From positions 14,460 to 78,459 of the forward strand of contig CANQYZ010000004.1 in NCBI GenBank assembly GCA_947628215.1: 64,000 nucleotides of DNA. The letters run 5' to 3'. Below are positions 1-18,565 of the stretch, one piece after another (position 1 is the stretch's first letter; the number at the start of each line of letters is the position of its first letter). Position numbers and translations under genes: made by a program. The notes under the pieces are model-generated. The model made no database searches. It saw nothing but the letters and a program-made list of their open reading frames with translations, and was not told where the DNA came from. The DNA is from an uncultured Clostridia bacterium (lineage in GTDB: Bacteria > Bacillota > Clostridia > TANB77 > CAG-508).

Positions 1-3000
1 CTTGAGGATAAAATACCAATATCTTGTCTTATAGAGCAAGATAGACAAATTGTTGAAAGATTTGGTATAGAAAAATGTAAAACTTTAGACTGGGAATTAC
101 TTGGAAAAAGACCATATAGATTTCAGATAAATATTAGAAATTTATTAATGGAAATAGATCCTCAAACAGAAGATATTAATGCTGCTTTATATGAGAGAGT
201 AAAGGATGTTTTAAGACCAGCTGATTATTCTGATAGAATGAAAGAAGCTTATCCAGATAGATTAATTGATACTACAGGTGTAGACGATGTTAGATTCGAC
301 ATAATTTATAGATTCAATAGAGGAGATACTTCTTTAGAAGAAATAGTAGATAATTGGGAACTATTTAGAAATAAAGATGCAAGTGTTTGTTTATTAAGAG
401 ATGATAGAAATGAAAGTAGAATTAGTGATAGCGATTTAAAAGCTTTCATGCAAGAATTTGGAAACTTAGCACCAATAATTGCAAAATATAATAATATTTA
501 TACGTTTATAAATGAAGTTAAATCATTAGAAGGCGAAGAAAAAAGAGAATATGTTAAAAGTATTACTGATAGCATTTTAGCAAATACTCGTAGAGAATAT
601 GGAGATTATAGACCAGTTATAGAATTAGATGATGATGAGTATAAAGAGATATTTAAGTATTCATCATTGGAAGATTTTTTAAAATTATTTAATAGTTATT
701 ATACAGAAGCAATAATGAGAGAACTTGAGACTTTGCCACAAGACTATATTTTTAATATGTCTATTCCATTTTCAGTACTTTTAAATTATCATGTTTTATC
801 TTTTATTGGAACATTTGGACTTAAAAATGTAGAAGATTTTAATACAGAATGTGGGTATTTTTTTAGTAAAAATGATTGTGAAATGCTAAAGCTAATGGAT
901 GATATGTATTTGCATTATGCTGGAAACGAGTGGGATCCTCAAAAGAAAATTTATACTAAACCTACTTTAGATGAAAATGGAGAATATCTTGATAGACCCT
1001 ATACAAAAGAAGAATTTTATGAAGCAATGAGAAGAATGATTGTATATGGACCAAGTGACGGAAACTTTATTGATAAAGCACCAGATTATAGAGATATGAC
1101 AGGAGAATTTAGACAAAGATTTTCAGAATTATTTATATCAGAGCAAGCTCCAGAAGAATTACAAAAATTGTTTTATACAAAATCTATTACACCACAGATT
1201 CTTTTAGAACATCCAGAATATGTAGACTTTTTAGAAGGAAAAGATTTAGAATCATGCTTTAAGAGAGTAGATATAAGAGTTACAGGAAGCAAAGCGCTAT
1301 ATGGATATGAAAATCTTTATAGATTCTTAAGTACAAAAACTGATTTTCGTAGTGTAATAGATTTAGTAACTCAATATGGTGATCTATTAGATATTGCTTT
1401 TGATAGAACTAGAGCTGACGGATATTTATACGAGATAAATTTTGATATAAATGATGATTTAGATAAATTTCAAGATAGAATAAATGAAACTTTTAAAAGG
1501 CTAGTAATAGAAAAAGGAGTTAAATATCCTAAAACAATTCCAAATAGTTTAAGAGAAAATTATCCAGAAATGTTTTTAAGCGATAATGCGCCTCAAGAGC
1601 TTCAAGATGCTTTTTATAGTAGAAGTGTTACCTCTGAAATGATTTTAGCTCATCCTGAATATAGAGAATTTTTAAAAGATATTGATTTAGAGATTTTATA
1701 TAAAAATATGCCGGTTAGAATGGCAGGCAATACTTTTGAAACAATAAACTTAATAAAAGCCATGATACAAACATGTGGAAAAGATGAAACATTAGATTTA
1801 ATGATTTCCTATGGCAAATATATAGAAGCTGTTTTTGATGCTAATAAATTAACTGAATTTAGATATAATAAAGAATTTACAAAAGATGATTTATTAGATG
1901 AGATGGATAAAAGTATCTTGCAGGCAATTATTGATGGGAAGATAAAATATGGCGAAGATATGCCAGATCATTTTAAAGAGAAAAATCCTTCTATGTTTTT
2001 AGGGAAAGATGTTCCTGAAGAAATAAAAAAGAAATTCTATAATAGAGAATTTACAATTGAGGATTTTATAAATAATCCAGAACTTTTAGATGTATTTGGA
2101 AATACAAATATTGCATGTGGTTTTTCTGAAACTGTTTCATGGATGATTCCTTTATTTGGTGATAATGAAGATATAAAAGAAGCAAATAATAATAGATTAA
2201 AAGTACTTTCTGCGTATTCAAAAATTCAAGATGTATCTCTTCAAAAAGCTTTTGAAGAATATGTTAGAGAATGTGGAGACAAAATTGATTTAGAGAAAAT
2301 AGAATATGTTTCAGATGTATTATCAAAATTATCTTTGTCAAATTCAAGTGAAATTTATACATTTAGAAAAGAACTTGCAACTCAGATATTAAATTCTCCA
2401 AATCCAATTGAAACTTTAAATGAAATCGAAGATATATTCTTAAGAAATACAATTCCAACCTTTGGAAAGATATACTCATGTTTTGAAATATTACATCCAG
2501 ATTTTAAAGGGTTCAACTTTGAGTCTACCAATATATCTCCAGTACTTAAAAATAGTACAAATGAGCAAAAAAGTAAAATAATATTTGCTGATTTAATAAA
2601 AGCTTCATTTGGATCAAATAATAGATCTGTAAGAAACTTTTTAGATAATATAGAAAAAGGAAATGCCTTATATGAAAGTATAAAAACAGGGCAAATTAGA
2701 TTTGAAGATTTAAGCGAAGCTCAAAGACAAGATTTAACTAGTTTTAACAAAATATTATCAACAATTTATAATATGAATTTACAAAAAGGAAAAGAAGAAC
2801 CATTTATTAATACAGAAAATCCTATCACAGATATTTCTAAACTTTCTAAATTATTATCAAAAGATGGCACATTAGATTATGATTTACGGTGATAGAGTAA
2901 TAGAGATGTTTTGCTCTTCTATAGGACTTAATACTTTAGCACAAGCAAAAGAATGGATAAGTAAAAAAATTAAAGAGGCTGATAGAAGAAATAGAGAAGC

Positions 3001-4558
3001 TGCAAGTTCAGAAATGGTTTTACACGAAGGAGATTTTGTTAAGGGTATAGGTGACATTACTTATTTAAGAAATATACTTCAAAATGGTAGTGTTTCTAAG
3101 GAGTTTTTAGGAGCTAGCGCAACAAGTGATGCTACACCTTTAGATACAGATGTGTCTAGAATCATGTCTGAAGATGGAACAATTGCTGAAAAAATAGGAG
3201 GAGCAGCAGCAAGTAGTTATGGACCAATTTATTTTGTCTTGAAAAATGATGATAGATTTTTAACTACAAGAACAGGTAGTGAGACTTTAGATGCTGAAAA
3301 TGACATGTCAAAAATAGAAGTATTCTATACAGGAGCTTTAGGAGCAGGACATTATGGAATAAGGACAGGTTTTTCATCTAGTGAGATAAATTATATTGTA
3401 ATGGAAAATTTTGATGAAAGAGTTGGAATTGAAATTGCAATGAATGGATTTTACATTCCTGTTGTAGATATGAAAGGAAAAGTAATTTTTACTCCTAAGC
3501 AATATGATGAAATAAGAGAAAAAATGCAAGGATTATCTTATTATGGAGAAAGTGATTATACATTTTCTGAAAATTTAGTTACAGGAGATACACAGAAAAT
3601 AGCTTCTCAAATAGAAAGAAGTAGTAGCGAGACAAAAAAGAAAAGAGATAAGATTTGTAAAATAGTAGAAGAAACAGTTTCAGAACTTGGACTTAAATTA
3701 AAAACAAGTATAGATGGAGATTTAACAGATGGTTTTGTTGAATTAATAGATACAGGTTCTACAGGAAGAGAAACAAATAAACCTGGTGATGGCGATTTTG
3801 ATTTTATGATGAGACTAGATAAGTCAATACTTTCAAATCAAGCAGAACTTCAAAAACTAAAACAGGCATTATTAAAGAAATTAGGAAGAGAAGATTCTTC
3901 AGGAGTAATAGGAACTGGTGACTTTAGATTAAAAGGAGTAGAGATAGATGCAGATACAAGTGTAGATATTGATATTACTTTTACAGAAAAGACAGATGCT
4001 ATTTCTTATTCAACTGATATGGCTTTGCAGGATAGATTAGCTACTATAAAAAAACAAAATCCAGAAAAGTATAAATATGTACTAGCAAATATTCTTCTTG
4101 CTAAACAAACATTAAAAGAAGCAGGAGTATATAAACCAAATCGTGGAGAAGTTCCTCAAGGTGGACTTGGAGGAGTTGGAATAGAAAATTGGGTATTACA
4201 AAATGGTGGTTCTTTTATAGATGCTGCAAGGGGATTTTTAGAAGCAGCAGAGGGAAAAAGTTTTTCTGAATTTAAATCTTCTTATCATGTTTGGGATTTT
4301 GGAGAGAATCATTTAGCTGAAAGACGTGGATTATATCCTCATGATGATTTTATATCAAGCAATATGAGTGAAGAAGGATATCAAAAAATGGTTCAGGCTT
4401 TAAGAGAGTATGTTAGAAGCTATTCAAAATCAGCTCAAAGCCTTGGAAAAGAAACATTAGAAGAACAAAAAGATGTAGAACTTTTAGATCAAACAGAATC
4501 TGATCAAGAAAAACAAGCTTTAGATATCGTAAAGAATAATAGTGCTATTTCTAAGTAA
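1..4558 (+). CDS. Very large repeat-containing protein, 5' partial (frame is open to the window start). C-terminal ~560 aa carries a GS-x11-DGDFDF then VDIDI pattern that resembles a Pol-beta-type nucleotidyltransferase fold. ORF-track pieces 148..2892 and 2879..4558 are joined by skipping C2887 of an in-frame CGG.
   Basis: No stop in frame 1 from nt 1 to 147. Four copies of a ~35-aa repeat (PEELQKLFYTKSITPQILLEHPEYVDFLEGKDLE-like). Reading tta-[c]-ggt-gat at the junction gives ...DYDL-G-DRVIEMF in one frame. Confidence 0.45.
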
Positions 4559-4587
4559 AATATAAACATATAATAAGGAAGAATAAT

Positions 4588-4761
4588 ATGGAAGATAAAA
4601 AACAAATTAAAATAGGACTTACTGCTTTATGTATAATAATTATTATTTTTATATTAAGTGCAATAATTATATATACTGTAGTAGCAAGTTCTAAAGAAAA
4701 AGAATCAGAAAATAGATATATAAATACTGTAGATATAAATGAAACAAATACATATAATTAA
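4588..4761 (+). CDS. Small (57 aa) single-pass membrane protein, hypothetical.
   Basis: RBS aaggaag sits 7 nt upstream of the ATG. Hydrophobic core LTALCIIIIIFILSAIIIY. Not in the ORF track because it is under 60 aa. Confidence 0.35.
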   Translation: MEDKKQIKIGLTALCIIIIIFILSAIIIYTVVASSKEKESENRYINTVDINETNTYN

Positions 4762-5349
4762 ACAAATTACAAAAGAACAATAATATATAAATGGAAGTTT
4801 TAATATATTAGAACTTCTATTTTTTTGCTTTAAAAAATAGAGAAAAAGAAAGAATAATAGAGATAAAATTTTAAAACTTAAAAAAATATGAACATAATCA
4901 CAATATTTGCTTAAAATTATTGACATACCCCATTTTTTATGCTAATATAAAAACATAGATTTTAAGAAACTAAAAATCGTTAGGTAAGGCTACTATAGGG
5001 ATATGGGTTGTTGCCGCAGAGTAATGGAGACATTATGAGTAGGATAGCAATCAATATCGACTTCAAGGTATTGATTAATACAATAACAAGCCCTATAATG
5101 CTAAAGCTCAAACGTTGATTTATAGTAAGTATAAGTGCGGCGTTTGTCCGTATTTTTTTTGCGAAAAGAGGTGAGAATAATGGATAGTAGTGGGAGTAGG
5201 AGCATAGATGGAAGCTCGACAAATCTTGGCAAAATTGAATATGTATTAAGGCGTATACGGAAATGATGAATTACTATCCATTATTTTCTAGGAAGCTTAG
5301 ATACGTTTTCATTTATTTTGCCTTAAATTTTTTAGAAAGGGGTAGAATA

Positions 5350-5811
5350 ATGGAAAAAAGAATCATAGAATATAAAAAAGAATTTGATATTGATGTAAAA
5401 AAATTTATTGAATGCATATATGTTGGCGAATATAATATGGACGTTGGAATAGATGTAATACAAAATGAAGATATATATGCAGATTACTTAGAAAATGGAG
5501 GCAATTTTTGGATTGCATTAGATGAAAATAATAATGTAATTGGAACAATAGCCGGAAAAGTTATAGACAATGAAACTATTGAATTAAAAAGAATGTATGT
5601 TAGAAAAGAATGTAGAGGATATGGAATTGCTCAAGAATTATTAAATAATTTAGAAAAATTTGCAGCAGATAATGGTTTCAAATATTTAATACTTGGAACA
5701 TATGAAAGAATGGAAAGAGCAATCGGATTTTATACTAAAAATTTATTTATATTAGAAGATGTTGAGACAGAATATCAAGAGGAGAGATTTTTTAAAAAAT
5801 GTTTAGCATAA
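5350..5811 (+). CDS. GNAT family N-acetyltransferase.
   Basis: RBS aaagggg precedes ATG 5350. Acetyl-CoA motif RGYGIAQELL. The ORF-track start 5263 lacks an RBS. Confidence 0.8.
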   Translation: MEKRIIEYKKEFDIDVKKFIECIYVGEYNMDVGIDVIQNEDIYADYLENGGNFWIALDENNNVIGTIAGKVIDNETIELKRMYVRKECRGYGIAQELLNNLEKFAADNGFKYLILGTYERMERAIGFYTKNLFILEDVETEYQEERFFKKCLA

Positions 5812-5927
5812 ATTTAGATGTAGCTGATATACTAAAATAAATGTATATTAGCTATTTTTTTGCTTTTTACTTGAACTTTTTAGTATAAAGATATATATTA
5901 ATTTTCGATAATCTAAGGAGGCATAAT

Positions 5928-6434
5928 ATGAAATTAAATTTAGTATTAGTAGAACCAGAAATACCACAAAATACTGGAAATATAGCAAGAACATGTGCAG
6001 CAATTGGCGCAAAACTACATTTAGTAAAGCCACTTGGTTTTGATATTTCAGAAAAGCAAGTAAAAAGAGCAGGATTAGACTATTGGGATAAAGTAGAAAT
6101 AGAGGAACATGAAAATTTAAATAGCTTTTTAGAAAAATATAAACCAGAAGAACATGACATGTTTTTTGTTACTACAAAAGGAAAAGAGGTATATTCTGAT
6201 ATTGATGTAAAAGATTCTAAAGAAGTATTTTTATTATTTGGAAAAGAGACTAAAGGATTACCAGAAGATTTACTTTTAAAATACATAGATAAAACTATAA
6301 GAATTCCTATGAGAGAAACATTAAGATCTTTAAATCTATCAAATTCAGTTGCAATAGTAGCATATGATGTTTTAAGACAAACAAATTTTAATTCTTTAGA
6401 AAAAATTAGCAAATATTTTGATGATAGATTATAA
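5928..6434 (+). CDS. trmL: tRNA (cytidine/uridine-2'-O)-methyltransferase TrmL (SpoU/TrmH family).
   Basis: N-terminus MKLNLVLVEPEIPQNTGNIARTCAA. RBS aaggagg upstream. Confidence 0.85.
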   Translation: MKLNLVLVEPEIPQNTGNIARTCAAIGAKLHLVKPLGFDISEKQVKRAGLDYWDKVEIEEHENLNSFLEKYKPEEHDMFFVTTKGKEVYSDIDVKDSKEVFLLFGKETKGLPEDLLLKYIDKTIRIPMRETLRSLNLSNSVAIVAYDVLRQTNFNSLEKISKYFDDRL

Positions 6435-6439
6435 AAATA

Positions 6440-6468
6440 TTGACATAAATTTGAATACGTGGTAATCT
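6440..6468 (+). promoter_or_regulatory. Sigma-A-like promoter (TTGACA-17-TAATCT). It is overlapped by a perfect 19-nt palindrome, TCTAGTATTAAATACTAGA, at 6466..6484, a candidate operator.
   Basis: Hexamers and spacing read directly from the sequence. The palindrome lies between the -10 hexamer and the RBS of the hemolysin III gene. Confidence 0.4.
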
Positions 6469-6496
6469 AGTATTAAATACTAGATAGGAGGAAAAT

Positions 6497-7166
6497 ATGG
6501 CAAGAATAAAAGATCCAGCAAGTGGAATTACTCATTTAATAGGGGCTGTATTATCAGTTGCAGGCCTTGTTTTAATGATTATTTTTTGTAGTTTATATAG
6601 TAATGAGAAGGCATGGGATATTGTAACTTGTACAATATTTGGAACTGCACTTATTTTACTTTATTTGTTTAGTACTTTATACCATATGTTAAATTTAGGA
6701 CCAAAAGGAACTAAAGTATTTAGAAAATTTGATCATATAATGATATATATATTAATAGCAGCAACATATACTCCAATATGTTTAGGACCACTTCGTGGAG
6801 GATGGGGATGGTCTATATTTGGAATTGTTTGGGGAATGGCACTTCTTGGAACAATTTTGACAGCTGTATGGATAGATGCTCCAAGAAAGCTTACAACTGC
6901 ATTTTATATTTTAATGGGATGGGTTGTTGTAATTGCTGCGTATCCAATGATTACTACTTTTTCTAAGATTCCAAATGGAATGACATCTTTAGGATGGCTT
7001 TTAGCAGGAGGTATCTTTTATACAGTAGGCGGAATAATGTATGCTCTAAAATGGCCTAAAATTAATTTTAAATATTGGGGATTTCACGAAACATTTCATA
7101 TTTTTGTAATGCTTCGGAAGCTTTTGCCAATTTTGGTTTGTGTTTAGATATTTGATTTATATGTAA
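6497..7166 (+). CDS. Hemolysin III / PAQR family channel protein. +1 junction at in-frame CGG 7115..7117; ORF-track piece 6497..7147.
   Basis: Seven-TM HlyIII pattern. Skipping C7115 gives the family-typical C-terminus ...HIFVMLGSFCQFWFVFRYLIYM. Confidence 0.7.
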
Positions 7167-7169
7167 AAG

Positions 7170-7198
7170 TTGAAAAAAGCCGAAAAATCGTGTATAAT
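7170..7198 (+). promoter_or_regulatory. Sigma-A promoter with extended -10: TTGAAA, 17-nt spacer, TG-TATAAT.
   Basis: ttgaaa at 7170..7175, tgtataat at 7191..7198. It sits 33 nt upstream of the 7231 gene. Confidence 0.45.
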
Positions 7199-7230
7199 AT
7201 AAATGTTTATTTTTTAAAGAGAGAAAAAAT

Positions 7231-7860
7231 ATGAGTATTATAAGTCAAAAATTGAAAGAAAATTTAAATACTATAATAGAATATTTTTTACTATTTATAT
7301 TATATGCGCACCTTGGTTGGTGGATGGAAGTTATTATTTTTTACTTTAAAACGCATACTTTTGTAAATAGAGGATTTTTAATTGGACCATATTGTTCTAT
7401 ATATGGTTTTGGATGTTTATTTATTACGATATTATTTGGAAAATATAAAAATAATCCTAAAAAATTGTTTATGCTTTCATTTATTTGGTGCTCTATTATA
7501 GAATATGTTGTAGGATACATGATGGAAGTTACTTTTGGCGGAAGATGGTGGCAATATACTGATGCTAACTTCCTAAATATAAATGGAAGAGTATGGCTTG
7601 TGACTACTATTCTTTTTGGATTTTTAGCAACTTTACTTATAAGAAAAGTAGAACCATTACTAAAGAAGATTATAGAAAAAATACCAAAAAAATTTATTAA
7701 TACAGTAGCAGGAACAATACTTGTTATATATGCTTTTGATATTTTTGTAACATCAACATTTGTATTTGGTGCAAGAGATGCAATTGAATCTATAGAAAGT
7801 GATTGCACAACAATAATTTCAGAATATGTTTTAGATAACATAAAAAATATAATACGATAA
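7231..7860 (+). CDS. Polytopic membrane protein (putative ABC-transporter type IV / DUF-type permease-like).
   Basis: Multiple TM helices. RBS gagagaaaaaat-ATG. Confidence 0.55.
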   Translation: MSIISQKLKENLNTIIEYFLLFILYAHLGWWMEVIIFYFKTHTFVNRGFLIGPYCSIYGFGCLFITILFGKYKNNPKKLFMLSFIWCSIIEYVVGYMMEVTFGGRWWQYTDANFLNINGRVWLVTTILFGFLATLLIRKVEPLLKKIIEKIPKKFINTVAGTILVIYAFDIFVTSTFVFGARDAIESIESDCTTIISEYVLDNIKNIIR

Positions 7861-7873
7861 AAATATTTTAAAT

Positions 7874-8222
7874 GGGGGTGTATTTGGTTTCGACAGCCTT
7901 TTTGAAATATAGATAGCGGGTGGTGGAGCATCTGGCCACCATAAAAGATGCAAATTAAAATAAACGCTGATAACGAATTAGCAATTGCTGCCTAGGTTGC
8001 GGCAACGTCTTACTTTAGAAGCCTACGGCTAAAGATAAGGCGCAAGGTTAGTAGGAAACGAATCTGTTTTTTCTTCGCAAACAGAGGGTATTTAGAAGAT
8101 ACAAATATTATTCGTTTGTTTGTTAATGAATAATATTTGGAAATTTTAATAACAAACTGCACCCGGAGAAGTTTATATGGATAAAATCCTGGACAGGAGT
8201 TCGACTCTCCTCACTTCCACCA
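7874..8222 (+). ncRNA. ssrA: tmRNA (SsrA), standard one-piece form. Tag ORF ends ...ADNELAIAA-stop (gct gat aac gaa tta gca att gct gcc tag).
   Basis: 5' end GGGGGTGTATTTGGTTTCGACAG pairs with the 3' acceptor. T-arm GGAGTTCGACTCTCC and a terminal CCA. Tag frame read directly from the sequence. Confidence 0.85.
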
Positions 8223-8223
8223 A

Positions 8224-8250
8224 AGCAGTTCAATTCGAACTGTTTTTTTT
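8224..8250 (+). terminator. Rho-independent terminator after ssrA.
   Basis: Hairpin cagttcaattcgaactg followed by a T8 run. Confidence 0.55.
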
Positions 8251-8434
8251 GTTGAAAAAAATTCTAAAAAAATATTGACGTCTAAGAATATTTAAATTAT
8301 AATGCAAACAAATGTTTTAACAAATAATATATTTAATTACGTAGAATGACATAGAATTAAAATTGAAGAAGTAGGATACATTAAAGAAAATTGAAAACTA
8401 TAAAAATATATAAATAAAAAAAGGATGTGAATTT

Positions 8435-9343
8435 ATGAAACAAAACGATTTAGTAATTCAAAATGAATTATCAAATGAAGATATAAAAAAATTAATATAC
8501 ACAATAAGAGGTAAGCAAGTTATGCTTGATAGTGATGTAGCAATGTTATATCATTATGAAACTAAAAATATAAACAAAACTGTAAAAAGAAACATTGATA
8601 GATTCCCAGAAGAGTTTTGTTTTCAACTAACAGAAAATGAATTTCAAACTTTGAGGTTCCAAAATGGAACCTCAAAACAAAACTTAAAAATAAAAAATGA
8701 ACTTAGAGGAGGAAGAAGATATTTACCTTATGTTTTTACAGAACAGGGAATTGCTATGTTAGCAGGTGTTTTAAAAAATGATATAGCTGTAAAAGTCAGT
8801 ATTAATATAATAAAATCCTTTATTGAAATGAGAAAATTTATATCTTTAAATGGGCAAGTGTTTGAAAGACTAACAAATATGGAATATAAATTACTAGAAC
8901 ATGATAAAAAATTTGAAGAAGTTTTTAATCAACTTCAGTTAGAAGAAAACATTAAGCAAAGAATATTTTTTAATGGTCAAATATGGGATAGTTATAGTTT
9001 AATTATAGATATTATAAAAAAAGCAAATAAAAAAATTTTAATAATAGACAATTATATTGATGACAGTGTTTTAAAAATGTTAGCTAAAAAGAATAATAAT
9101 GTTGAAGTAACTATTTTAACATCAGATAAAAGTAATATTGCAACTTTAGATATTAAAAAGTTCAATAAAGAATATCCAATTCTTAAAGTTGCTAAAACAA
9201 ATAAATTCCACGATAGATTTATTGTAATAGATAATAAAGAGATGTACCATTTAGGAGCTTCTATAAAAGATTTAGGCAAAAAATGCTTTGGAATTAATAA
9301 AATAGAAGATAAGGAAATTATAGAAAAATTTATTAATTTGTAA
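8435..9343 (+). CDS. ORF6N-domain protein, a phage/mobile-element associated DNA-binding type, with an uncharacterised C-terminal half.
   Basis: IRGKQVMLDSDVAMLYHYETKNINKTVKRNIDRFPEEFCFQLT and GGRRYLPYVFTEQGIAMLAGVL match the ORF6N signature. RBS aaggatg upstream. Confidence 0.65.
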   Translation: MKQNDLVIQNELSNEDIKKLIYTIRGKQVMLDSDVAMLYHYETKNINKTVKRNIDRFPEEFCFQLTENEFQTLRFQNGTSKQNLKIKNELRGGRRYLPYVFTEQGIAMLAGVLKNDIAVKVSINIIKSFIEMRKFISLNGQVFERLTNMEYKLLEHDKKFEEVFNQLQLEENIKQRIFFNGQIWDSYSLIIDIIKKANKKILIIDNYIDDSVLKMLAKKNNNVEVTILTSDKSNIATLDIKKFNKEYPILKVAKTNKFHDRFIVIDNKEMYHLGASIKDLGKKCFGINKIEDKEIIEKFINL

Positions 9344-9845
9344 AAACATGTAAAGTCTAAATATCTTTTGTCTATTAGATAATTTATATCTGTAATAAAT
9401 CTCTTTAGTTTATACAGCGCTATATTTGACATTATTTTAAATACCAAGTATACTAAGAATAGGAAATGAATAACCGCAGTGAATGCGGTTACCACTACAT
9501 ATAGTTATAACAACACATTTGCAGTTTTGGCTGAAAGCAGAATGTGTTGTTATTTTAATCCTTATTAATCATTGAGTTCACATATTTTATGTATAAAATC
9601 GTCAATAATGTTACGTTTATTGTTGTAGAAGCTATTAAGGATATTATTAAAAGTTGAAGTTAAAAGCTCTGTAAATTAGTAAAATTAATAATTGCAAGGC
9701 TTTATTTTTTACATATAAATTTTTTTAATATCTTTATTAAATCTCATTAAATTATAATAACTTATTCTTGAATATATTTAATGTATACTATATAATTAAT
9801 ATGATATTTTTAAAGTTTAAAAATAGAGACAAGGAGATACCTAAG

Positions 9846-10847
9846 ATGAGTAATAAAGTAAAGATAATAATCATTACAGCAGTAGTAGCAGTCGTTATTA
9901 TAACACTTTTGGTTGCTGTATTATTATTTATGCCAAAAAAGCAAGAAACAGTTACTGAAAATAAAAATGAAGTAAGTGAAAATGTAGTTTCAAATGAAAC
10001 TGATGAAAATGCTACAGAAATTCAAGAAGGAGAAAGTAAGATTACAGAAACAGAAACTTCTGATGGAAGTAAAATTCCTGTTCCAGAGGGATTTACTTAT
10101 AAAGAAGGAACAGTAAGTACGGGTGCTGTAATTAGTGATGAGCAAGGAAATGAATTTGTATGGGTTCCAACAGATAATATATTATTTGTAAGAAGAGATT
10201 TTAATAATCCAAATACAGCAGTAAATCCAAATGAAAATTCTACAGGAAATACTACAAGTCAACTTACTACAAATACAAACTTTGCAGAGACACAAGAAAG
10301 TAACAAAGAATATATAGATAGTGTAAATAAATATAAAGGCTTTTATATTGGAAGATATGAAGCAAGTAAAAATGAAGAAGATGATACAAAAGCATGTACA
10401 AAGAAAGGTGTAGAACCACTTACTGAAATTGTATATGATAGAATGAGAAAAATTGCACAAAATACTTATGCAGATAATAATTCAGTACAATCTGATATTT
10501 GTAGTAGTTATGCATGGGATACATTATGTGTATGGCTACAACAATCAGGATATGACATTTATAATTCAACAAATTACGGAAATTATAAAAATAATCCAGA
10601 AGCAGTAAATAGAAAAGCAACAACAGGAAGAAATAGCAAATGGGTTACAAATAATATATATGATTTAGCAGGAAATGTATGGGAAATTTCTACTGAAGAA
10701 TGGGGAGAAGTTTATCATAAAAATCATACTGGAAGAGGTGGAGGATTTAATACAGATGGTATAAGATTTCCTCTTTCATGCAGAGTTGCTGAGTATGATG
10801 GATCATATGCATATATAGGATTTAGATTAGTTTTATATTTAAAATAA
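9846..10847 (+). CDS. Membrane-anchored formylglycine-generating-enzyme (FGE-sulfatase/SUMF1) domain protein.
   Basis: RBS aaggag precedes ATG 9846. N-terminal TM helix, then GNVWEISTEEW and RGGGFNTDG...YIGFRLV motifs. Confidence 0.65.
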   Translation: MSNKVKIIIITAVVAVVIITLLVAVLLFMPKKQETVTENKNEVSENVVSNETDENATEIQEGESKITETETSDGSKIPVPEGFTYKEGTVSTGAVISDEQGNEFVWVPTDNILFVRRDFNNPNTAVNPNENSTGNTTSQLTTNTNFAETQESNKEYIDSVNKYKGFYIGRYEASKNEEDDTKACTKKGVEPLTEIVYDRMRKIAQNTYADNNSVQSDICSSYAWDTLCVWLQQSGYDIYNSTNYGNYKNNPEAVNRKATTGRNSKWVTNNIYDLAGNVWEISTEEWGEVYHKNHTGRGGGFNTDGIRFPLSCRVAEYDGSYAYIGFRLVLYLK

Positions 10848-10938
10848 TTTAATTTTTGGAGCTTGATATAATTGACATTAAAATAAATTAAATATATTAT
10901 ATTATATATAAATGCAAAAGAAAAAATGAGGTGTTTTT

Positions 10939-12144
10939 ATGAGTGGAGAAAAAAAAGAAAACATATCTAAAATAGGTAACTTTTTCAAAAATCTTCCAGA
11001 TTGGTTCATAAAACAAGTGGAAAAAGTTAAAAACTTAGAGAGAAAAACAAAAATTATTCTTGCAGTAGTATTACTTTTAGTAATAATTGCAATAATAAGC
11101 TTAATAGTATTTTCAATAAATAGTAAAAAGCTAGGAAACTTAGTAGGAAATATAAATAATAATGGTATAGCAGTAAAAGATGGAAGTGCAGCTGTTATAT
11201 CTTATACAAATACAGAAGATGGAAATGATTCATCTGAAAAAGTAGCAAGATCTGGTATATATAAAGTAAATTCAAATGGAAAAGTAAAAACATACGAAAC
11301 ATTTGGAGAAAATGTATATGGATTTTCAGTAAATAAAGTAGGAAACTGGATTTACTATATGAAAGTTGACGATGAAAAAGGGACAAGAGATATAGTAAAA
11401 ACAAACGGAAATAAAAGAGTAGTAATTGCAAAAGACCTACCATCATATGTAAAAAATAGTGAATACTTAATAGAAAATTATACTCTTATGACAATTGAAG
11501 CAAACTATATTTATTATTTAAATGAGAATCAAAATATTACTAGAATTAAGACAAATGGAAAAAATAAAGAAGTAATAAGAGACGATATAAAAGCAAAAGA
11601 TTTTGTAGTATATAAAGATTATATTTATCTAAATACAGATGATAATGAATTTATGAAAATCAAAATTAAAGATTTTGAGGAAAAACAAAATTTAAAAAAT
11701 ATAAATGCAAATGATTTTCAAGTTGAAGGAAAATATATTTATTACATTGATAAAGCAAACAAATTACTTAGAGTAGACTTAAATGGAAACAACGAAAAAG
11801 TAATAGTAGATAAACAAATACAATCATTTAACGTAATAGGAAATGAAGTTTACTATTTTGCAGAAGAGAGTAAGTCTTCATCAGAAGAATCTAACGAATT
11901 TGCAATATTTAAGCTTAATATGAAGAATAATGAAACTAAAAAAATTGTAGATACTGCATATTCAGCAAGTAAGATTAATATTGCAGGAAATTACATCTAT
12001 TATGATGATAGAATAGATGGAGATATTTATTATAATACTGTATATAAAGTAAAACTTGATGGATCAGAAAAAGAAGATTTAGGACAGAAAGTTTTATCAG
12101 CAGAAGTTAAAGAATTTGATATAAAAGGAGATTCTTCAAAATAG
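10939..12144 (+). CDS. DUF5050-like beta-propeller repeat protein, N-terminally membrane anchored.
   Basis: Recurrent YIYY/ YIYYxD motifs (NWIYYMK, NYIYYLN, KYIYYID, NEVYYFA, NYIYYDD). Signal-anchor helix. Confidence 0.5.
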   Translation: MSGEKKENISKIGNFFKNLPDWFIKQVEKVKNLERKTKIILAVVLLLVIIAIISLIVFSINSKKLGNLVGNINNNGIAVKDGSAAVISYTNTEDGNDSSEKVARSGIYKVNSNGKVKTYETFGENVYGFSVNKVGNWIYYMKVDDEKGTRDIVKTNGNKRVVIAKDLPSYVKNSEYLIENYTLMTIEANYIYYLNENQNITRIKTNGKNKEVIRDDIKAKDFVVYKDYIYLNTDDNEFMKIKIKDFEEKQNLKNINANDFQVEGKYIYYIDKANKLLRVDLNGNNEKVIVDKQIQSFNVIGNEVYYFAEESKSSSEESNEFAIFKLNMKNNETKKIVDTAYSASKINIAGNYIYYDDRIDGDIYYNTVYKVKLDGSEKEDLGQKVLSAEVKEFDIKGDSSK

Positions 12145-12149
12145 CAAAA

Positions 12150-12188
12150 GAGAAAGTGGACTTTAAGATGTAAGTCCACTTTTTTTAA
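12150..12188 (+). terminator. Rho-independent terminator.
   Basis: agtggacttt-aagatgt-aagtccact followed by T7. Confidence 0.55.
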
Positions 12189-12212
12189 GAAAGATTTTTA
12201 AGGAGGAAAGAA

Positions 12213-12353
12213 ATGAGTTTAGGAACAGTTGCATATAATAAAAAAATATATAACTTAGACTATATGACAGAAGAAGAACTTGAAAATCTTTTAAATGATA
12301 TAGAAAAGGATAGGTTAAAGCTAAAAAAAGAAATTAAGGTATTAGTTAAATAG
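12213..12353 (+). CDS. Small (46 aa) hypothetical protein.
   Basis: Strong RBS aaggagg 6 nt upstream. Product is MSLGTVAYNKKIYNLDYMTEEELENLLNDIEKDRLKLKKEIKVLVK. Confidence 0.3.
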   Translation: MSLGTVAYNKKIYNLDYMTEEELENLLNDIEKDRLKLKKEIKVLVK

Positions 12354-12370
12354 GAGGTAAAATTTTTTAG

Positions 12371-13183
12371 ATGAGTGATTTTCAAAAAGAAAAAGACCAA
12401 AAATTTAATAATGTACTAAATAGCTTAATTAAACTATCTAAATTAAGTGCTATAGTTTCTTCTGCATATCAATATAAAAGTACTGAAAATTTAATAATAG
12501 ACAAAACTTCAAAAGAGGAAAATGTAATTATTTTTGGAATAGAAAATATTAATACAAAAGTATTAACAAATCCTTTAAAGTATGAAAATATCATAAATAG
12601 AAAAGATGAATTATTACTTGAATATAAAGATGTTCTAGATACAGTTGGAACTAATTACGATAATCAATTAACACTTGCATATGTAAGACAATATGAAGAA
12701 GATTTAGAACAACTTGAAAAATTAGTAGATATTTATATGCTTAGAAAAAAAGAAAATGAAGCTAAAAGAAAAGTAGACAATAGTGATGATGAAATAGCAG
12801 AAGAAATATATGATATAGAAGATGAGCTTGGAAAAAGTGAAGCTAAATCTAGAAGAGGAAAGACTTCCATAAATGCAAAAATTAAAGAAAAAAATAAAGT
12901 ATTAATGGAAGCTATGGAAAGTGAAGAAAAGGAAATTCATACTAAAATAAAAAGACCAACTTTTTTGCTTGGTGCTAAAAAATTCTTTTTTGGTAGATTT
13001 AATCCCAAAAAACTTATTGAAAAAAATGTTTTTTCTGGATTTAGAGAAAGAATAGAAAAATTTAAAAGTGATGAACTTGAGAATGTAAAGAAGAGTCACA
13101 AGTTTACAAGTGAAAATGTTGTAAAAGAAATAGATGATATTTCTGCAAAAAAAGTAAAAACAATATTGTCAAAATTAGATTAA
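12371..13183 (+). CDS. Hypothetical protein with charged, coiled-coil-like regions.
   Basis: RBS taggagg. 270-aa ORF with no recognisable family. Confidence 0.45.
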   Translation: MSDFQKEKDQKFNNVLNSLIKLSKLSAIVSSAYQYKSTENLIIDKTSKEENVIIFGIENINTKVLTNPLKYENIINRKDELLLEYKDVLDTVGTNYDNQLTLAYVRQYEEDLEQLEKLVDIYMLRKKENEAKRKVDNSDDEIAEEIYDIEDELGKSEAKSRRGKTSINAKIKEKNKVLMEAMESEEKEIHTKIKRPTFLLGAKKFFFGRFNPKKLIEKNVFSGFRERIEKFKSDELENVKKSHKFTSENVVKEIDDISAKKVKTILSKLD

Positions 13184-13204
13184 TATGCTAAAATATTAGA
13201 CTAT

Positions 13205-13475
13205 AGAGTAAAAATAAAATAAAAATCAATGAAAAAGCAAAGTAGAAAGGCAAAAAATATATTAAGAGAGAATAGGTTAAAAGCTGAGAGCCTATTTATA
13301 TATTGCTTATCGAAATTTCACTTTTGAGATTCTATATTGAAATTCAAAGTAGGTATAGACGTATAAGCTACGTTAAGAGCTTTTAGAGTTTAAATAAGAA
13401 ATTATTTAATAAATTTAGGTGGTACCACGGAAATTATAGACCTTTCGTCCTATGGATTGAAAGGTCTTTTTGTAT
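13205..13475 (+). promoter_or_regulatory. T-box riboswitch leader of pheS-pheT, with an upstream promoter (TTGTCA-17-TAAAAT at 13166..13194).
   Basis: Conserved T-box sequence aatttaggtggtaccacgg at 13412..13430. Terminator hairpin agacctttcg...cgaaaggtct plus T-run at 13438..13473. UUC-A specifier candidates in stem I. The gene context (pheS) fits a Phe T-box. Confidence 0.7.
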
Positions 13476-13506
13476 GGTAAATTTTAATTTTTTAAGGAGG
13501 ATATAA

Positions 13507-14562
13507 ATGGAGGAGAAAGTAAATTCAATTAAGAAAAATGCAGTAGATGAAATTGAAAAGACATCTGATTTACATGACTTAAATGATATAAGAGTTATGT
13601 ATTTAGGGAAAAAAGGAAAACTTACAGAAATACTAAGAAGTATGGGAGAGTTGTCTAGCGAAGAAAGACCAAAAGTTGGCTCTTTAGTAAATAAAGCAAA
13701 AGAAGAAGTAGAAGAAATTATAAAACAAAAAGAAGAAGAATTAAAAAAATTAGAACTTTCTAAAAAATTAGAAGAAGAAGATATAGACATTACTCTTCCA
13801 AGTAAAAAAACAGTAAGAGGAAGCAAACATCCTTTAAATAGAGTAATAGAAGAAGTTGAAGATTTATTTGTATCTATGGGATATGATGTAGTTTCAGGAC
13901 CAGAACTTGAAACAGATGAATATTGTTTTGAAAGATTAAATCTTCCAAAAGGACATCCAGCAAGAGATATGCAAGATAGCTTTTATATTACAACAGAATA
14001 TTTGCTTAGAACTCAAACTTCTGCAGTTCAAGCAAGAACTATGATGGCAAATACAGAAAAAACTCCAATAAGAGTAATAGTACCAGGAAAGACTTTTAGA
14101 AGAGAAGATGATGCAACACATTCACATCAATTTAATCAAGTTGAAGGATTAGTTGTAGATAAAAATATTTCTTTAGCTGATCTTAAAGGTACTCTAGAAG
14201 TATTTATGAAAAAAATGCTTGGACAAAATACAGAACTTAGATTTAGACCAAGCTATTTCCCATTTACAGAACCATCTTATGAAGTAGATGTTACATGTTT
14301 TAAATGTGGTGGAAAAGGATGTAATCTTTGTAAACAAACAGGATGGATTGAACTTCTAGGATCAGGAATAGTTCATCCAAATGTTTTAAGAATGAATGGA
14401 TATGATCCAGATAAATATTCAGGATTTGCATTTGGTGTAGGACTTGATAGACTTGCTATGTTTAAATATGGAATTACTGATATAAGACTTTTATATCAAA
14501 ATGATGTTAGATTTTTAAAACAATTTGATAGAAAGGATGAAGAATATGAAATTAAGTATTAA
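13507..14562 (+). CDS. pheS: Phenylalanine--tRNA ligase alpha subunit.
   Basis: Class II aaRS motifs ([12 protein letters not shown], GxGxGxDR). 351 aa. Confidence 0.95.
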
Positions 14563-16915
14563 TTTTTTAAAAGATTATGTTGATTTAGATGAAAACATAG
14601 ATGTAAAGAAAATTGCTGATGATATGACAAATGCAGGAAATGAATATGATGAAGCAGGCTCACTTATAAATTGCACAAATTTAGTAATAGGTGAAGTTTT
14701 AGAATGTACTATGCACCCAGATTCTGATCACTTACATTGCTGCAAAGTAGATGTAGGAAATGAAGTTTTAAATATAGTTTGCGGAGCTCCAAATGTACGT
14801 AAAGGATTAAAAGTAATAGTAGCTTTAGCTGGTGCAAAATTACCAGGTGGAGAAATAAAAAGAGGAATTATTAGAGGACAAGAATCTAATGGAATGATTT
14901 GTTCTATTGCAGAACTTGGATTAGAAAATAAATTCTTAAAAGAAGAAGATAAAGCTGGAATTCATGAACTTCCACAAGATGCAAAAGTTGGAGAAGATCC
15001 AATTAAATATATGGGAATGGATGATAGTGTTATTGATTTTGACCTAACTGCAAACAGAGGAGATCTTTTAAGTATATTAGGTATGGCTTATGAAGTAGGA
15101 GCTATATATGATAAAAAAGTAAAAGATATTGATTTATCACATAAAGAAAATAATGAAGATATAAATGATACATTTAAAGTAAAAGTAAATACAGAAAATT
15201 GTTCAATATTTTTAGCTAAAAAAATAAAAAATGTTGTAATTAAAGAAAGCCCAGCATACATAAAAAATAGACTTATAGCATCTGGAATAAGACCAATTAA
15301 TAATGTAGTAGATATAAGTAATTACGTAATGCTAGAGACTGGTCAACCACTTCATTTTTATGATGCAGATACTCTAGAAGGATGCCTAGAAGTTAGAATG
15401 GCAAAAGAGGGAGAAAAACTTACAACTCTAGATGGAATAGAAAGAATCTTAAAAGAAGAAGATATTGTAATTTCAAATGGTAAAAAAGCAATTGGACTTG
15501 CAGGCGTTATGGGAGGATTAGAAACAGAAATTACAGAAAAGACTAAAAACATTATTATAGAATCTGCAATATTTGATAATGTAAAAATTAGAAGAACATC
15601 AAATGCAATTTTAAGAAGTGAAGCAAGTAACAGATTTGAAAAAGGATTAGATCCAAATAGAACTTATATGGCAATTGAGAGATCTTGTAATTTACTAGAA
15701 AAATATGCAGATGCTGAAGTAGTAGGAAACATAGCAAAATATGATACAACTTCTTTAAAAGACACAAATATTGATATTACAGCAGAAAATATAAATGCAA
15801 TTCTTGGAATGGAAATTTCAAAAGAAGATATATTAGATGTATTTAGAAGACTTGGATTTAAGACAAGTGTAAATAAAGACATAATAACAGTATCTGTTCC
15901 AAAAAGAAGAATTGATATATCAATAAAAGAAGATTTAATAGAAGAAGTAGGACGTATTTATGGAGTAAATAATATAAAAGGAAAACTTCCAAACATTTTA
16001 CCTAAGATGGGAAGCTATGATAAAGTTACAAGACAAATTAGAAATAAAATGATAAATCTTGGACTAAATGAAACATTATCTTATGTATTAGTTCCAGAAG
16101 CAGATGCAAAAATGTTTACAAATGATGATACAGAAGTTGTTAAACTTTTAGCTCCATTATCAGAAGATAAAAATACTTTAAGACATAGTGTATCTGTTGC
16201 TTTATATAAGATTTATGAGTACAATAAAGCAAGAAATAATAAAGATGTATGTATATTTGAGATAGGAAAATCATTCCAAAAACAAGGAGAAGAATATAGT
16301 GAAACTAAAAAACTAGCTTCTCTTATGACAGGTGAATATTATCTTGGAATTAATAAGAAAAAAGTAGACTTTTATGTAATTAAAGGTGTAGCAGAAGAAA
16401 TTTTAGATTATTTAGGATATAATGGAAGATATAGTTTTGTAAAAGACAAAGAAAAAATACCAAAGGATATGCATCCTGGTCAATCTGCTATGATTTCAGT
16501 AAATAATGATATGGTAGGTGTAATTGGAAAAATTCACCCAGAAATAGAAGAAGATGATGTATACATTTTAGAAATTGATTTAGATAGACTTTTAGATAAA
16601 AAAGTTTCAAGAATGAAATATAAAGAAATTTCTAAATATCCAGAAGTTAAGAAAGATATTGCTATAGTAGTAGATGATAAAGTTACTTCAAGAGAAATTG
16701 AAACTACAATTAAAAAAGCAGGAGGGTCACTTCTTACAAAGAGTGAAGTATTTGATATTTATAAAGGAAATGGAATTAAAGAAGGCAAAAAGAGCTTAGC
16801 ATATTCACTTTCATTTAATGATCAAGATAGAACTTTAACAGATGAAGAAATAAATAAAGCTGTTGAAAAAATTATTGAAAGATTAGAAAAAGATTTAAAA
16901 GCAGAATTAAGATAA
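14546..16915 (+). CDS. pheT: Phenylalanine--tRNA ligase beta subunit.
   Basis: Typical N-terminus [16 protein letters not shown] aaggatgaag. Overlaps the pheS stop. About 790 aa. Confidence 0.95.
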
Positions 16916-16960
16916 TAAATAAAACATAAGATAAAGCCTTAAATGTAGGAGTTTTGTAGC

Positions 16961-17900
16961 ATGAAAAGGAAAAATATAAGTTTAATACGGTATCATTATT
17001 TTAGTATTAATAGTAATTGTTTTAGGATTACTTTATATAAATAAAAATAAAATTTCTAAAATGATAGATAATATATCTGAAGAAAATAGAATTCAAAAAA
17101 CAAATGAATTAGTGAAAAACGTAAAAAAATTAGATTCTAAAAAAGAGATTGTTTATACTAAATGTGAATATGAAGAAAGCATAGAAGATGAAGGTGCAGA
17201 AAATGGGGATAACTCAGTTTGTTTTTACAGATATCCTGTAATAAATATTGATTCAGAAGATGTAAAAAACATAAATGAGGAAATCGAAGAAATTTTTGGG
17301 TTTTCATATGATGATAAAGAAAAAGAATTAAATAATCTTAAATATTCACTTGGAATAAATTATTTTTACTATATAAATGATAAAATATTGTCAGTTGTTG
17401 TAGTTGGATGCGAAGTTAATAAAATGGAATGTAAATATTATAATATTGATTTATCATCTTTAAAAAAGATAGAAAATAGTTCATTAGTTGGCAAAGATGT
17501 AGATATTAAAAAAATGAAACAAAAAGTTATAGACTTTGCAAATAAAAAATTTGATGAACAAATTGACGCTGTAGAACAAGAAGAACTAAATGAAGATGAA
17601 GAAATAGATGATGATATTGAACTTGAAGAGGAAGTTATAGAAGAATCAGACGAAGAAGAATATACAGAGCAAGATGATGATGCAGAAGATATTGATGATA
17701 CAGAACTTTTAATAGAAAAGACAAGAGAGAATTTCATAAATAAAATGAACTTAATAGAAAAATTTGATAGCACATATTTTAATAAAGACGGAGATTTATG
17801 TGCAAGATTTGAAGTAGAAGTTGCAAATGGAATGGAACTTGATACAGAAGTTATAGAGCTAAATATAACAAAAAGAAAATGTTACACTTGTAGTAGATGA
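16961..17900 (+). CDS. Membrane-anchored, highly acidic hypothetical protein. +1 junction at in-frame CGG 16988..16990.
   Basis: MKRKNISLI-[c]-GIIILVLIVIVLGLLYINKNK gives a continuous signal-anchor leading into the acidic ORF 17061..17900. Without the skip, the ATG-initiated frame stops after 27 codons. Confidence 0.5.
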
Positions 17901-18011
17901 AGAATTTGTTGGTAAAAAAACAGAATTTAAACCAAATTTCTAAAAATTAAAAAATAAAACGGACAGTACTTAAAATTGAAGTATTTGTCCGTTTTTAAAG
18001 GCTTTTATAAA

Positions 18012-18040
18012 TTGACAAAACGGCAACATATTGATAATAT
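18012..18040 (+). promoter_or_regulatory. Sigma-A promoter TTGACA-17-TAATAT.
   Basis: Read directly from the sequence, upstream of the yqeG-like gene. Confidence 0.45.
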
Positions 18041-18065
18041 ATAGATGAATAAAACGGAGGAAGAA

Positions 18066-18563
18066 ATGAATATATACCCAGATCTATATTTAGATAGTGT
18101 AAAAAATATTAGCTCAGAACTTTTAAAGAAAAATAATATAAAAGGGTTAATATTAGATGTTGATAATACTTTAATAGATTATTATAAAAATTTGCTAGAT
18201 GGAGCAGAAAAATGGTGCAAAGATATTAAAGATGATGGAATTAAATGTATGATAGTTTCAAATAGTCATAAAAAAGAAAAAGTTGAAACTGTAGCAAAAA
18301 AATTAGAAATTCCATATATTTTATTTGCAAAAAAACCTTTTAAATCAGGATTTATAAGAGCTTCAGAGCAAATGAAATTAGCTCCTGAAGAAATTGCGGT
18401 TGTAGGAGATCAAATTTTTACTGATGTAATAGGTGCTAGAAGATGTAATATGTTTGCAATTTTAGTAAAACAAGTTGCTAAAAAAGATATTCTTATAACA
18501 GCAGTAAAAAGACCAATAGAAAATCTTGTAATTAAAAGTTATTTAAAAAGGAAAGGTAAATAA
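18066..18563 (+). CDS. YqeG-family HAD-IIIA phosphatase.
   Basis: ILDVDNTLIDYY HAD motif I. RBS ggagga precedes ATG 18066. Confidence 0.75.
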   Translation: MNIYPDLYLDSVKNISSELLKKNNIKGLILDVDNTLIDYYKNLLDGAEKWCKDIKDDGIKCMIVSNSHKKEKVETVAKKLEIPYILFAKKPFKSGFIRASEQMKLAPEEIAVVGDQIFTDVIGARRCNMFAILVKQVAKKDILITAVKRPIENLVIKSYLKRKGK

Positions 18564-18565
18564 AG

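Follow-up and report, generated by a model that had tools for sequence, protein, structure and literature searches.

Does the gene at the start of the DNA studied here encode one giant enzyme or two proteins, and what reaction would its product catalyse? This DNA, called the window below, is a stretch of 64,000 nucleotides (nt) from an uncultured Clostridia bacterium (assembly GCA_947628215.1, contig CANQYZ010000004.1, positions 14,460 to 78,459 of the forward strand). An earlier note had described there a repeat-containing protein of over 1500 amino acids (aa) with a nucleotidyltransferase (NTase)-like C-terminal region. We found two overlapping open reading frames (ORFs) at this locus, a scaffold half (designated ORF1) and a catalytic half (ORF2). 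The explanation that we favour, with moderate confidence, is that the enzyme would transfer nucleotides to an RNA 3′ end or to a nucleoside triphosphate (NTP) as acceptor, that it is joined to a helical scaffold, and that its gene is an accessory, horizontally moving one.

A predicted NTase module at the C terminus of ORF2

The ORF2 product was modelled with AlphaFold2 (predicted local distance difference test (pLDDT) 87.9, predicted template modelling score (pTM) 0.83). The model comprised, in order, a helical hairpin, an alpha/beta domain (aa ~40-230), an NTase (aa ~270-520) and a long terminal helix. A Foldseek search of the Protein Data Bank (PDB) with this model gave nine matches at E <= 0.001, and all nine were NTases belonging to one clade: CdnC (6u7b, 6p8v and 6p80), the A. 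fulgidus CCA-adding enzyme (AfCCA; 1uet, 1ueu, 4x4o and 4x4p), porcine OAS1 (4rwp) and CdnD (6p82). CdnE, TUT4/TUT7, GLD-2, a cGAS-like receptor and Trf4 were found at lower ranks. The matches had E values of 1e-4 to 1e-2 (best 1.4e-4) and extended over ~300-330 columns, including the helical lobe. A structure search of this kind had been proposed in the earlier note as a check on the NTase fold, and it did find that fold. Among viral structures, nothing matched the ORF2 fold at E < 1e-3.

The motifs on which the earlier note had based its assignment were located in ORF2 where it had placed them: GSTGRETNKPGDGDFDFMMRLD at aa 293-314 (nt 3755-3820), and VDIDITF at aa 362-368 (nt 3962-3982), 55 aa past the DxD. 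Together they form the Pol-beta motif, hG[GS]-x(9-13)-Dh[DE]h plus a carboxylate from a later strand, with G293-S294, 11 residues, D306-F-D308 and a third carboxylate (D363/D365) 55-57 aa on. Two further motifs were K409-x3-K413-x4-Y418-K419 and GGLGGVGIENW (aa 428-438). In alignments of 39-45 sequences, G293, S294, D306, D308, D363/D365, K409, K413 and Y418 were invariant. Pfam NTP_transf_2 matched 13 of 45 homologues, and one of these (P0321) was over the gathering score (25.7 vs 21); SMODS matched four of the 45, weakly. The model, the structure matches, the invariant residues and these Pfam matches agree with the Pol-beta NTase-like region of the earlier note, and we assign the C-terminal module of ORF2, as modelled, to the Pol-beta NTase superfamily, which is defined by an alpha-beta-alpha-beta-alpha-beta catalytic fold, and its catalytic residues are conserved. 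From its fold and motif register, it probably falls in the bilobed clade of poly(A) polymerase (PAP), class-I CCA-adding enzymes, OAS and cGAS/DncV-like NTases (CD-NTases), in which the catalytic lobe is followed at once by a helical lobe with a G-rich helix and Lys/Tyr residues that bind the triphosphate.

The helical lobe matched RiboL-PSP-HEPN in five of the 45 members (best E = 7e-7), at scores of 17-23, below the gathering score of 28.4. Only 47 of 136 family representatives had the Rx4-6H motif of HEPN, making an HEPN RNase unlikely, and this candidate identity of the lobe was rejected.

Fission of a giant gene into ORF1 and ORF2

Frame 1 had no stop from nt 1 until a TGA codon at 2890-2892 with a TAG directly after it, and ORF1 ended as CGG(2887)-TGA(2890)-TAG. 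ORF2, in the +1 frame, overlapped ORF1 by 14 nt (2879..2892, ATGATTTACGGTGA). The stops ending frame 1 and the ATG at 2879 indicated two ORFs here and no single ORF of >1500 aa. A relative of ORF1 with 96% identity, P0121, was 1002 aa long, placing the 5′ end of ORF1 ~39 codons upstream of nt 1; the earlier statement that the gene is open from nt 1 and begins upstream was thus correct. The only tRNA in the window (tRNA-Trp, 22813-22887, - strand) had the anticodon CCA, consistent with code 11, where TGA is a stop, in an organism of low GC content (26.7% G+C in the window), and even under code 4 ORF1 would end one codon on, at the TAG.

The giant protein was not found at this locus, but it exists in the family. 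The homologues of ORF1 were nearly all of ~1,530-1,560 aa, and their final ~520 aa were 72-73% identical to ORF2; fused relatives had 73% identity to ORF2 over 511 aa and 62% to ORF1. Among the species-genome loci that were fetched, the gene was a single ORF (fused or edge-truncated) in all but L014. In most related gut bacteria, a fused protein of ~1,500 aa is the usual form. Separate ORFs in related strains, which the earlier note had named as evidence against its single protein, occurred in the closest relatives (the split clade described below), and most other relatives were fused.

Alignment of the DNA of five split and two fused loci revealed a change at the junction from TTR-GNT-GAT (fused) to TTR-C-GGN-GAT (split). 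The window shared the extra C with its close relatives (L006-L008) and with four more lineages (L001-5, L014, L093 and L094). Since the break in frame recurred in L006-L008, which are independent assemblies of the close relative, and in the four other lineages, it was real and not a sequencing error. In a neighbour-joining tree built from the ORF2 region, the five split lineages grouped as one clade. Inside this clade identity dropped to 60% (ORF2) and 62% (ORF1), with both ORFs intact in all five lineages, and the ratio of nonsynonymous to synonymous substitution (dN/dS) between the window and L007 was 0.19 for ORF1 and 0.12 for ORF2. Intact halves in diverged lineages and low dN/dS indicated an old, stable fission and not a pseudogene: the split forms derive from one event, and both halves are under purifying selection. 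A metagenome scan for additional split lineages yielded only two, both already known.

ORF1 and ORF2 would be translated separately off one transcript (no terminator was found between them). An ATG in frame with ORF2 was present at or beside the junction in every split lineage, and two polypeptides are probably made by translational coupling at this overlapping ATG, as read from the sequence; the weak Shine-Dalgarno sequence at the ORF2 start, the only one there, counts against this. Programmed +1 frameshifting at UUA-CGG-UGA (a rare codon, then a stop), which would yield a full-length fused protein, is in our judgement improbable. A +1 shift at UUA-C-GGU does give a product exactly colinear with the fused forms (DYDL-GDRVIEMF vs DYNL-ADRVIKMF), CGG is rare (seven of 7,669 codons, 0.9 per 1000) and has its sole ORF1 occurrence at the junction, each of the five split lineages has C as its inserted base although the ORF2 frame prefers TAT and TGT, and strong Shine-Dalgarno sequences are missing at the ORF2 starts. 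Known +1 sites combine a P-site codon able to re-pair after the shift with a slow A-site codon or a stop, often helped by a Shine-Dalgarno sequence upstream or a structure downstream. Here, however, re-pairing in the +1 frame is impossible for the P-site codon (UUA/UUG), two split lineages have their stop one codon later (CGG AGA TAG/TAA), and neither a homopolymer run nor a frameshift-stimulating RNA structure downstream of the junction (z = +0.8) was found. Also against a shift are the ATG available in each lineage and the small number of lineages known, four or five.

Repeats and conserved domains outside the NTase

The AlphaFold2 model of the full-length ORF1 relative P0121 (pLDDT 88.3) was alpha-helical nearly throughout. 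With ORF1, Foldseek found nothing in the PDB at E < 0.2, only generic alpha-solenoids. The earlier note had counted at least four repeats of ~35 aa. Its motif was found three times (starting at aa 384, 531 and 672 of ORF1, window numbering), each copy heading a unit of ~145 aa (aa 371-519, 518-660 and 659-804), and no fourth copy was detected with a hidden Markov model (HMM) of the motif, the remaining matches scoring <= 3 bits. The head of the unit reads [LM]F[IL]x(3)xP[EQ]E[LI]xxxFYx[KR]x(2)T...PE[YL]..F. The three units matched an HMM built from themselves at E 1e-56 to 1e-75, and the unit recurred in 64 of 82 relatives (1-5 copies each, mode 3), indicating that the repeats are more than chance. 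A profile search with the unit returned nine short fragments only and no other architecture. None of the known repeat families matched, including the cell-wall-binding repeats, a match to which the earlier note had named as evidence against its reading, and a DUF1841 match on the repeat head was under its cut-off. No signal peptide and no secretion or trafficking domain was detected in the N-terminal sequence.

The C-terminal helical domain of ORF1 was the sole part of ORF1 that matched every family representative. Its motifs were SNSSE (nt 2338-2355), NxIPxxGKIY (2446-2475) and FGSNNRS (2608-2628). A profile search gave no relative of this domain among PDB sequences, and Pfam gave no recurrent match. 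In the alpha/beta domain of ORF2, the invariant positions were K55-G56, D84xTPLDTD91, E147, H158-Y-G-x-R-T-G164 and N189-G-x-Y-x-P194; its profile had no match among PDB sequences, and per-member Pfam scans no recurrent one. Both domains were as well conserved as the NTase. When P0121 was compared with 137 family representatives, the universally conserved core consisted of the last ~240 aa of ORF1 and of ORF2 up to aa ~515. Across the family the C-terminal 760 aa were conserved and the N terminus was variable.

Two candidate relatives of the alpha/beta domain were tried and rejected. Its motifs VKGIG...ILQNG and GPIYFV resemble those of PARP-type ADP-ribosyltransferases, but hhalign against the catalytic domain of PARP1 was negative; the sole other hint of such a relationship was a PARP-like match in BFVD at E = 0.65. 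A 316-aa neighbour protein of L007 also gave a negative result as a homologue of the domain, and it had no PDB relative.

A family of giant proteins in gut bacteria

An exhaustive search with ORF2 yielded 1,039 clusters at 50% identity, nearly always with the ORF2-like module as the C-terminal ~515 aa of proteins of 1,000-6,114 aa. In a scan of one genome per species, 465 genomes had a relative; nearly all were metagenome-assembled genomes of uncultured gut Bacilli, and a minority were from some Clostridia and three Saccharibacteria. No usable match to ORF1 or ORF2 was obtained from Pfam, NCBIfam, PHROGs or PADLOC, as expected from the earlier note, which had recognised no named family. The family was also without a match in the phage, plasmid and IMG/VR collections, and we found no description of it in the literature.

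Some genomes had two or three giant genes. In L092, paralogues lay in tandem at 7095-10592, 10658-14902 and 14973-19190, and L019 had copies at 182-4825 and 10023-12992. These paralogues clustered together in the tree, which points to recent local duplication. One long relative, P0288 (4932 aa), contained a transglutaminase-like (papain-fold) core at aa 220-321, above the Pfam cut-off; no extra Pfam domains were found in the other relatives of 2,000-3,500 aa.

Neighbouring genes and mobile elements

Across 79 species loci no neighbour was conserved, the commonest being a generic ABC transporter (17/79), and many loci consisted of a lone giant gene amid housekeeping genes. No effector, HORMA/TRIP13 or Cap gene was next to the family loci, the PADLOC defence models did not match, and no small ORF (membrane or immunity) recurred downstream of the gene in 72 loci. 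The signalling/defence or polymorphic-toxin architecture suggested by the earlier note was therefore left unsupported, and the conserved C terminus of the family does not suit a polymorphic toxin either. The tiny membrane protein gene that the note had placed after ORF2 is present (57 aa with one hydrophobic span). It accompanies ORF1/ORF2 only in the closest relatives (L006/L007), was absent downstream of the gene in the 72 other loci, and is lineage-specific.

A recombinase or relaxase was found within 8 kb in ~10 of the 79 species loci. The 77%-identical split pair P0124 + P0002 lay between a Mob_Pre relaxase and TnpV, adjoining a 562-aa serine recombinase, and this block occurred in five different insertion contexts. 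The fused P0136 had a small resolvase on one side and, on the other, a pair consisting of Mob_Pre and a serine recombinase. In several lineages, small mobilizable elements carry the giant gene as their main cargo.

In L001-L005, the element (1450-12614) was ~11 kb long, came from human-gut metagenomes and was found in five chromosomal contexts. It carried genes for a large serine recombinase, an 89-aa ORF, a Mob_Pre relaxase, Bro-N, a 165-aa ORF, the split pair, a 151-aa ORF and TnpV. The contig collection had P0002 indexed in 323 of its blocks. We take this element to be like Tn4451. The mobilizable transposons Tn4451 and Tn4453 encode the large serine recombinase TnpX, the Mob/Pre relaxase TnpZ and TnpV; the likeness is that of the carrier element of the P0124 + P0002 relatives, not of the giant gene itself. 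No Tn4451-like element was present downstream of the gene in the window, the upstream side of which lies beyond the window.

A protein family of ~151 aa was found in the split clade only (L007 1383-1838, L001 11664-12119, L014 about 11622, L094 3966-4430). Its members had 31-95% identity and no Pfam match, and the gene was upstream in the lineage of the window and came immediately after ORF2 in the other lineages.

Other features of the window

The features of the locus are listed in Table 1.

Table 1. Coordinates of the giant-gene locus in the window
Feature	Position (nt)	Strand	Remarks
ORF1, scaffold half	1..2892	+	963 aa inside the window; 5′ end cut off
Three tandem helical units of ~145 aa	1111..2412 (1111-1557, 1552-1980, 1975-2412)	+	From alignment and HMM
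ORF1 C-terminal helical domain	2161..2889	+	Part of the family-wide conserved core
Fission junction	2879..2892	+	C at 2887 is a 1-nt insertion vs fused genes
ORF2, catalytic half	2879..4558	+	559 aa, +1 frame, start ATG 2879; P0001 is 100% identical
ORF2 alpha/beta domain	2996..3568 (aa 40-230)	+	Invariant alignment columns
NTase module	3686..4438	+	Predicted Pol-beta-fold catalytic lobe and helical lobe
Small membrane ORF	4588..4761	+	57 aa, single-pass, one hydrophobic span; good Shine-Dalgarno AAGGAAG

Downstream of the locus, an M-box (Mg2+) riboswitch (104 bits) was found at 4969-5126 with a terminator at 5133-5155. It was followed by a tiny ORF (5135-5266) and a GNAT acetyltransferase ORF (5263-5811), not by a Mg2+ transporter; the gene called there in L006/L007 was a 72-aa GNAT fragment. 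A tmRNA gene (7874-8222, tag ADNELAIAA) was directly followed by a gene at 8435-9343 with ORF6N/Rha-like and VPA1262-N-like domains, an arrangement suggestive of integration at ssrA by a genomic island or by a prophage of which a remnant is left. Upstream of an ORF at 13507-14562 lay a T-box leader (13220-13455, 110 bits).

Proposed function and alternative explanations

The ancestral protein would have been a giant cytoplasmic enzyme of ~1,500 aa, with a variable N-terminal array of ~145-aa units, a helical domain, an alpha/beta domain and a C-terminal NTase. In the clade of the window, the C inserted at nt 2887 cut the gene between the helical and alpha/beta domains. ORF2 probably starts by coupling, and the products of ORF1 and ORF2 presumably re-associate. 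As the metal- and triphosphate-binding residues are all intact, nucleotide-transfer chemistry is predicted. In all characterised members of the matched NTase clade, to our knowledge, the acceptor of the nucleotide is a ribose hydroxyl, either on the end of an RNA or on a second NTP. On this basis, the predicted reaction is a template-independent transfer of nucleotides to such a hydroxyl, with a tail (on an RNA 3′ end) or a short oligonucleotide (on a second NTP) as the product, and the helical scaffold would provide substrate or ligand binding. Inference thus covers which class of substrate is used, whether the subunits re-associate and what the enzyme does in the cell; for this last point, a part in conflicts between mobile elements and their hosts would be more likely than housekeeping.

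Several results weigh against this explanation. The Foldseek E values were modest (~1e-4), with TM-scores on the target of 0.4-0.5. No solved NTase was matched when ORF2, three domain profiles or the K..K..Y/G-rich segment were searched against PDB sequences, and hhalign of the family profile with AfCCA (a query verified against PDB 1r89, E = 9e-296) was not significant (E = 0.47). The PAP/CCA/OAS assignment therefore rests on the predicted fold and the motif register. The register of this non-significant alignment was colinear through GS-x-x-R-x-T, the carboxylates, VD-V/I, LLK-x3-K-x4-Y and the G-rich helix followed by GSF, and it paired K409, K413 and Y418 with K152, K156 and Y161 of AfCCA, the first and last of which (K152 and Y161) bind the NTP triphosphate. 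The NTase is the only one of the three conserved core domains with an assignment, so the key activity might not be that of the NTase. Most loci are in an ordinary chromosomal setting, with a recombinase or relaxase within 8 kb in only ~10 of 79, so a mobile or conflict role is weakly based.

The same data can be read in other ways. The gene might encode a second-messenger synthase like those of cyclic-oligonucleotide-based antiphage signalling systems (CBASS), in which the array senses an invader and the cyclic or linear oligonucleotide made acts on an effector in cis (the alpha/beta domain) or elsewhere, as a single-gene, OAS-like system of defence or conflict. CdnC, CdnD and CdnE are indeed among the best PDB folds, SMODS matches a few members, the number of N-terminal repeats is variable, and the gene is accessory, patchy and at times on mobile elements, with tandem paralogues in L092. 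We nevertheless find this unlikely, given that the CCA-adding enzyme, OAS and terminal uridylyltransferases score equal to the CD-NTases, that no adjacent effector or regulator gene is conserved, that PADLOC found no match and that the alpha/beta domain matches none of the known effectors. Less likely still is an NTase that modifies a protein or small molecule (AMPylation/NMPylation, as by MNT antitoxins, GlnE or kanamycin NTase) with a helical lobe of the HEPN/KNTase_C type. The NTP_transf_2 and RiboL-PSP-HEPN matches would suit it, and the minimal NTases in polyvalent proteins of mobile elements have been proposed to NMPylate proteins (PMC5512222). The folds matched, however, are those of NTases with RNA or NTP acceptors, not KNTase, MNT or GlnE; the HEPN motif is present in a minority of representatives, and K-x3-K-x4-Y and the G-rich helix align with the neck of the CCA-adding enzyme (in the hhalign result above).

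Two further readings, as a polymorphic toxin and as a giant gene decaying into a pseudogene, are very improbable, and both are largely refuted. The large gene with a C-terminal enzyme and a small membrane ORF after ORF2 would suit a toxin, as the frameshift relative to most relatives would a pseudogene. Against the toxin stand the conserved C terminus and variable N terminus, an N-terminal sequence free of secretion and trafficking domains and of a signal peptide, and the downstream immunity ORF, which is not conserved in the 72 loci; against the pseudogene stand halves that are intact in five of five split lineages, with dN/dS of 0.12-0.19.

In the most far-reaching reading, gut Bacilli and their mobilizable elements would use the family for conflict, as an OAS-like system complete in itself. 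The array would then sense foreign nucleic acid or protein, and the NTase would respond by tailing a target RNA or by oligonucleotide synthesis. A new effector or regulatory pair would be formed by the two unassigned domains, and the clade of the window would have a two-subunit form of sensor plus enzyme. This reading is speculative, and we think it doubtful.

Comparison with known systems

The class-I CCA-adding enzyme of A. fulgidus (1uet/1r89/4x4o) shares with the ORF2 model a Pol-beta catalytic lobe and a helical "neck". In the weak alignment (E = 0.47), GS-x-x-R-x-T, two carboxylates, a third Asp, K-x3-K-x4-Y and the G-rich helix follow in the same order, but significant sequence similarity is absent. 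The body and tail domains, which bind the acceptor/T-arm of the tRNA, are not evident in ORF2, which ends ~40 aa past the helical lobe as a single long helix. CCA-adding enzymes are also universal and of ~400-450 aa, whereas here the NTase follows ~1,250 aa of other domains in an accessory, patchily distributed gene.

The bilobed NTase architecture is common to the ORF2 model, the CD-NTases (CdnC, CdnD and CdnE) and OAS1/cGAS, which were the best Foldseek matches in the PDB. The family loci are without the adjacent effector (phospholipase, nuclease, TM or TIR, for example) and the frequent Cap2/3 or HORMA/TRIP13 by which CBASS is recognised, and the family protein is five times the size of a CD-NTase, with two extra conserved domains. 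The polyvalent proteins of Firmicute conjugative elements are likewise large multidomain proteins with an NTase on Firmicute mobile elements (Iyer et al. 2017, PMC5512222). Their NTases are of the minimal four-strand type, fused to ArdC-N and found in type IV secretion system (T4SS) contexts (PMC5512222), whereas the NTase here is bilobed, without ArdC, T4SS neighbours or Pfam LPD domains. Pfam detected none of the domains of polyvalent proteins (MuF, ArdC, SNF2, methylase and LPDs) in ORF1, ORF2 or seven giant relatives, and in place of the T4SS or phage-head genes that accompany polyvalent proteins, the only mobile-element neighbours were Mob_Pre and serine recombinases. In polymorphic toxins, the N-terminal trafficking region is conserved, the C-terminal toxin varies and an immunity gene follows immediately; the family shows the reverse pattern of conservation. 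Thus, the family is not a CBASS operon, a canonical CCA-adding enzyme, an HEPN module, a polymorphic toxin or a polyvalent-protein NTase.

Significance of the family

The proteins of the family (1,100-6,100 aa) fall into >1,000 clusters and come from 465 or more species of uncultured gut bacteria; they have a fully conserved catalytic module but no family assignment, name or cultured representative, and characterising the family would give a function to a large block of the "dark matter" of the gut microbiome. The fission marks a domain boundary, and the 559-aa catalytic subunit of the split clade should be much simpler to express than the fused form of 175 kDa. The presence of the gene as cargo of mobilizable elements hints at a function that is selectable in horizontal transfer, and its characterisation could show a new bacterial use of the PAP/CCA/OAS/cGAS clade of enzymes.

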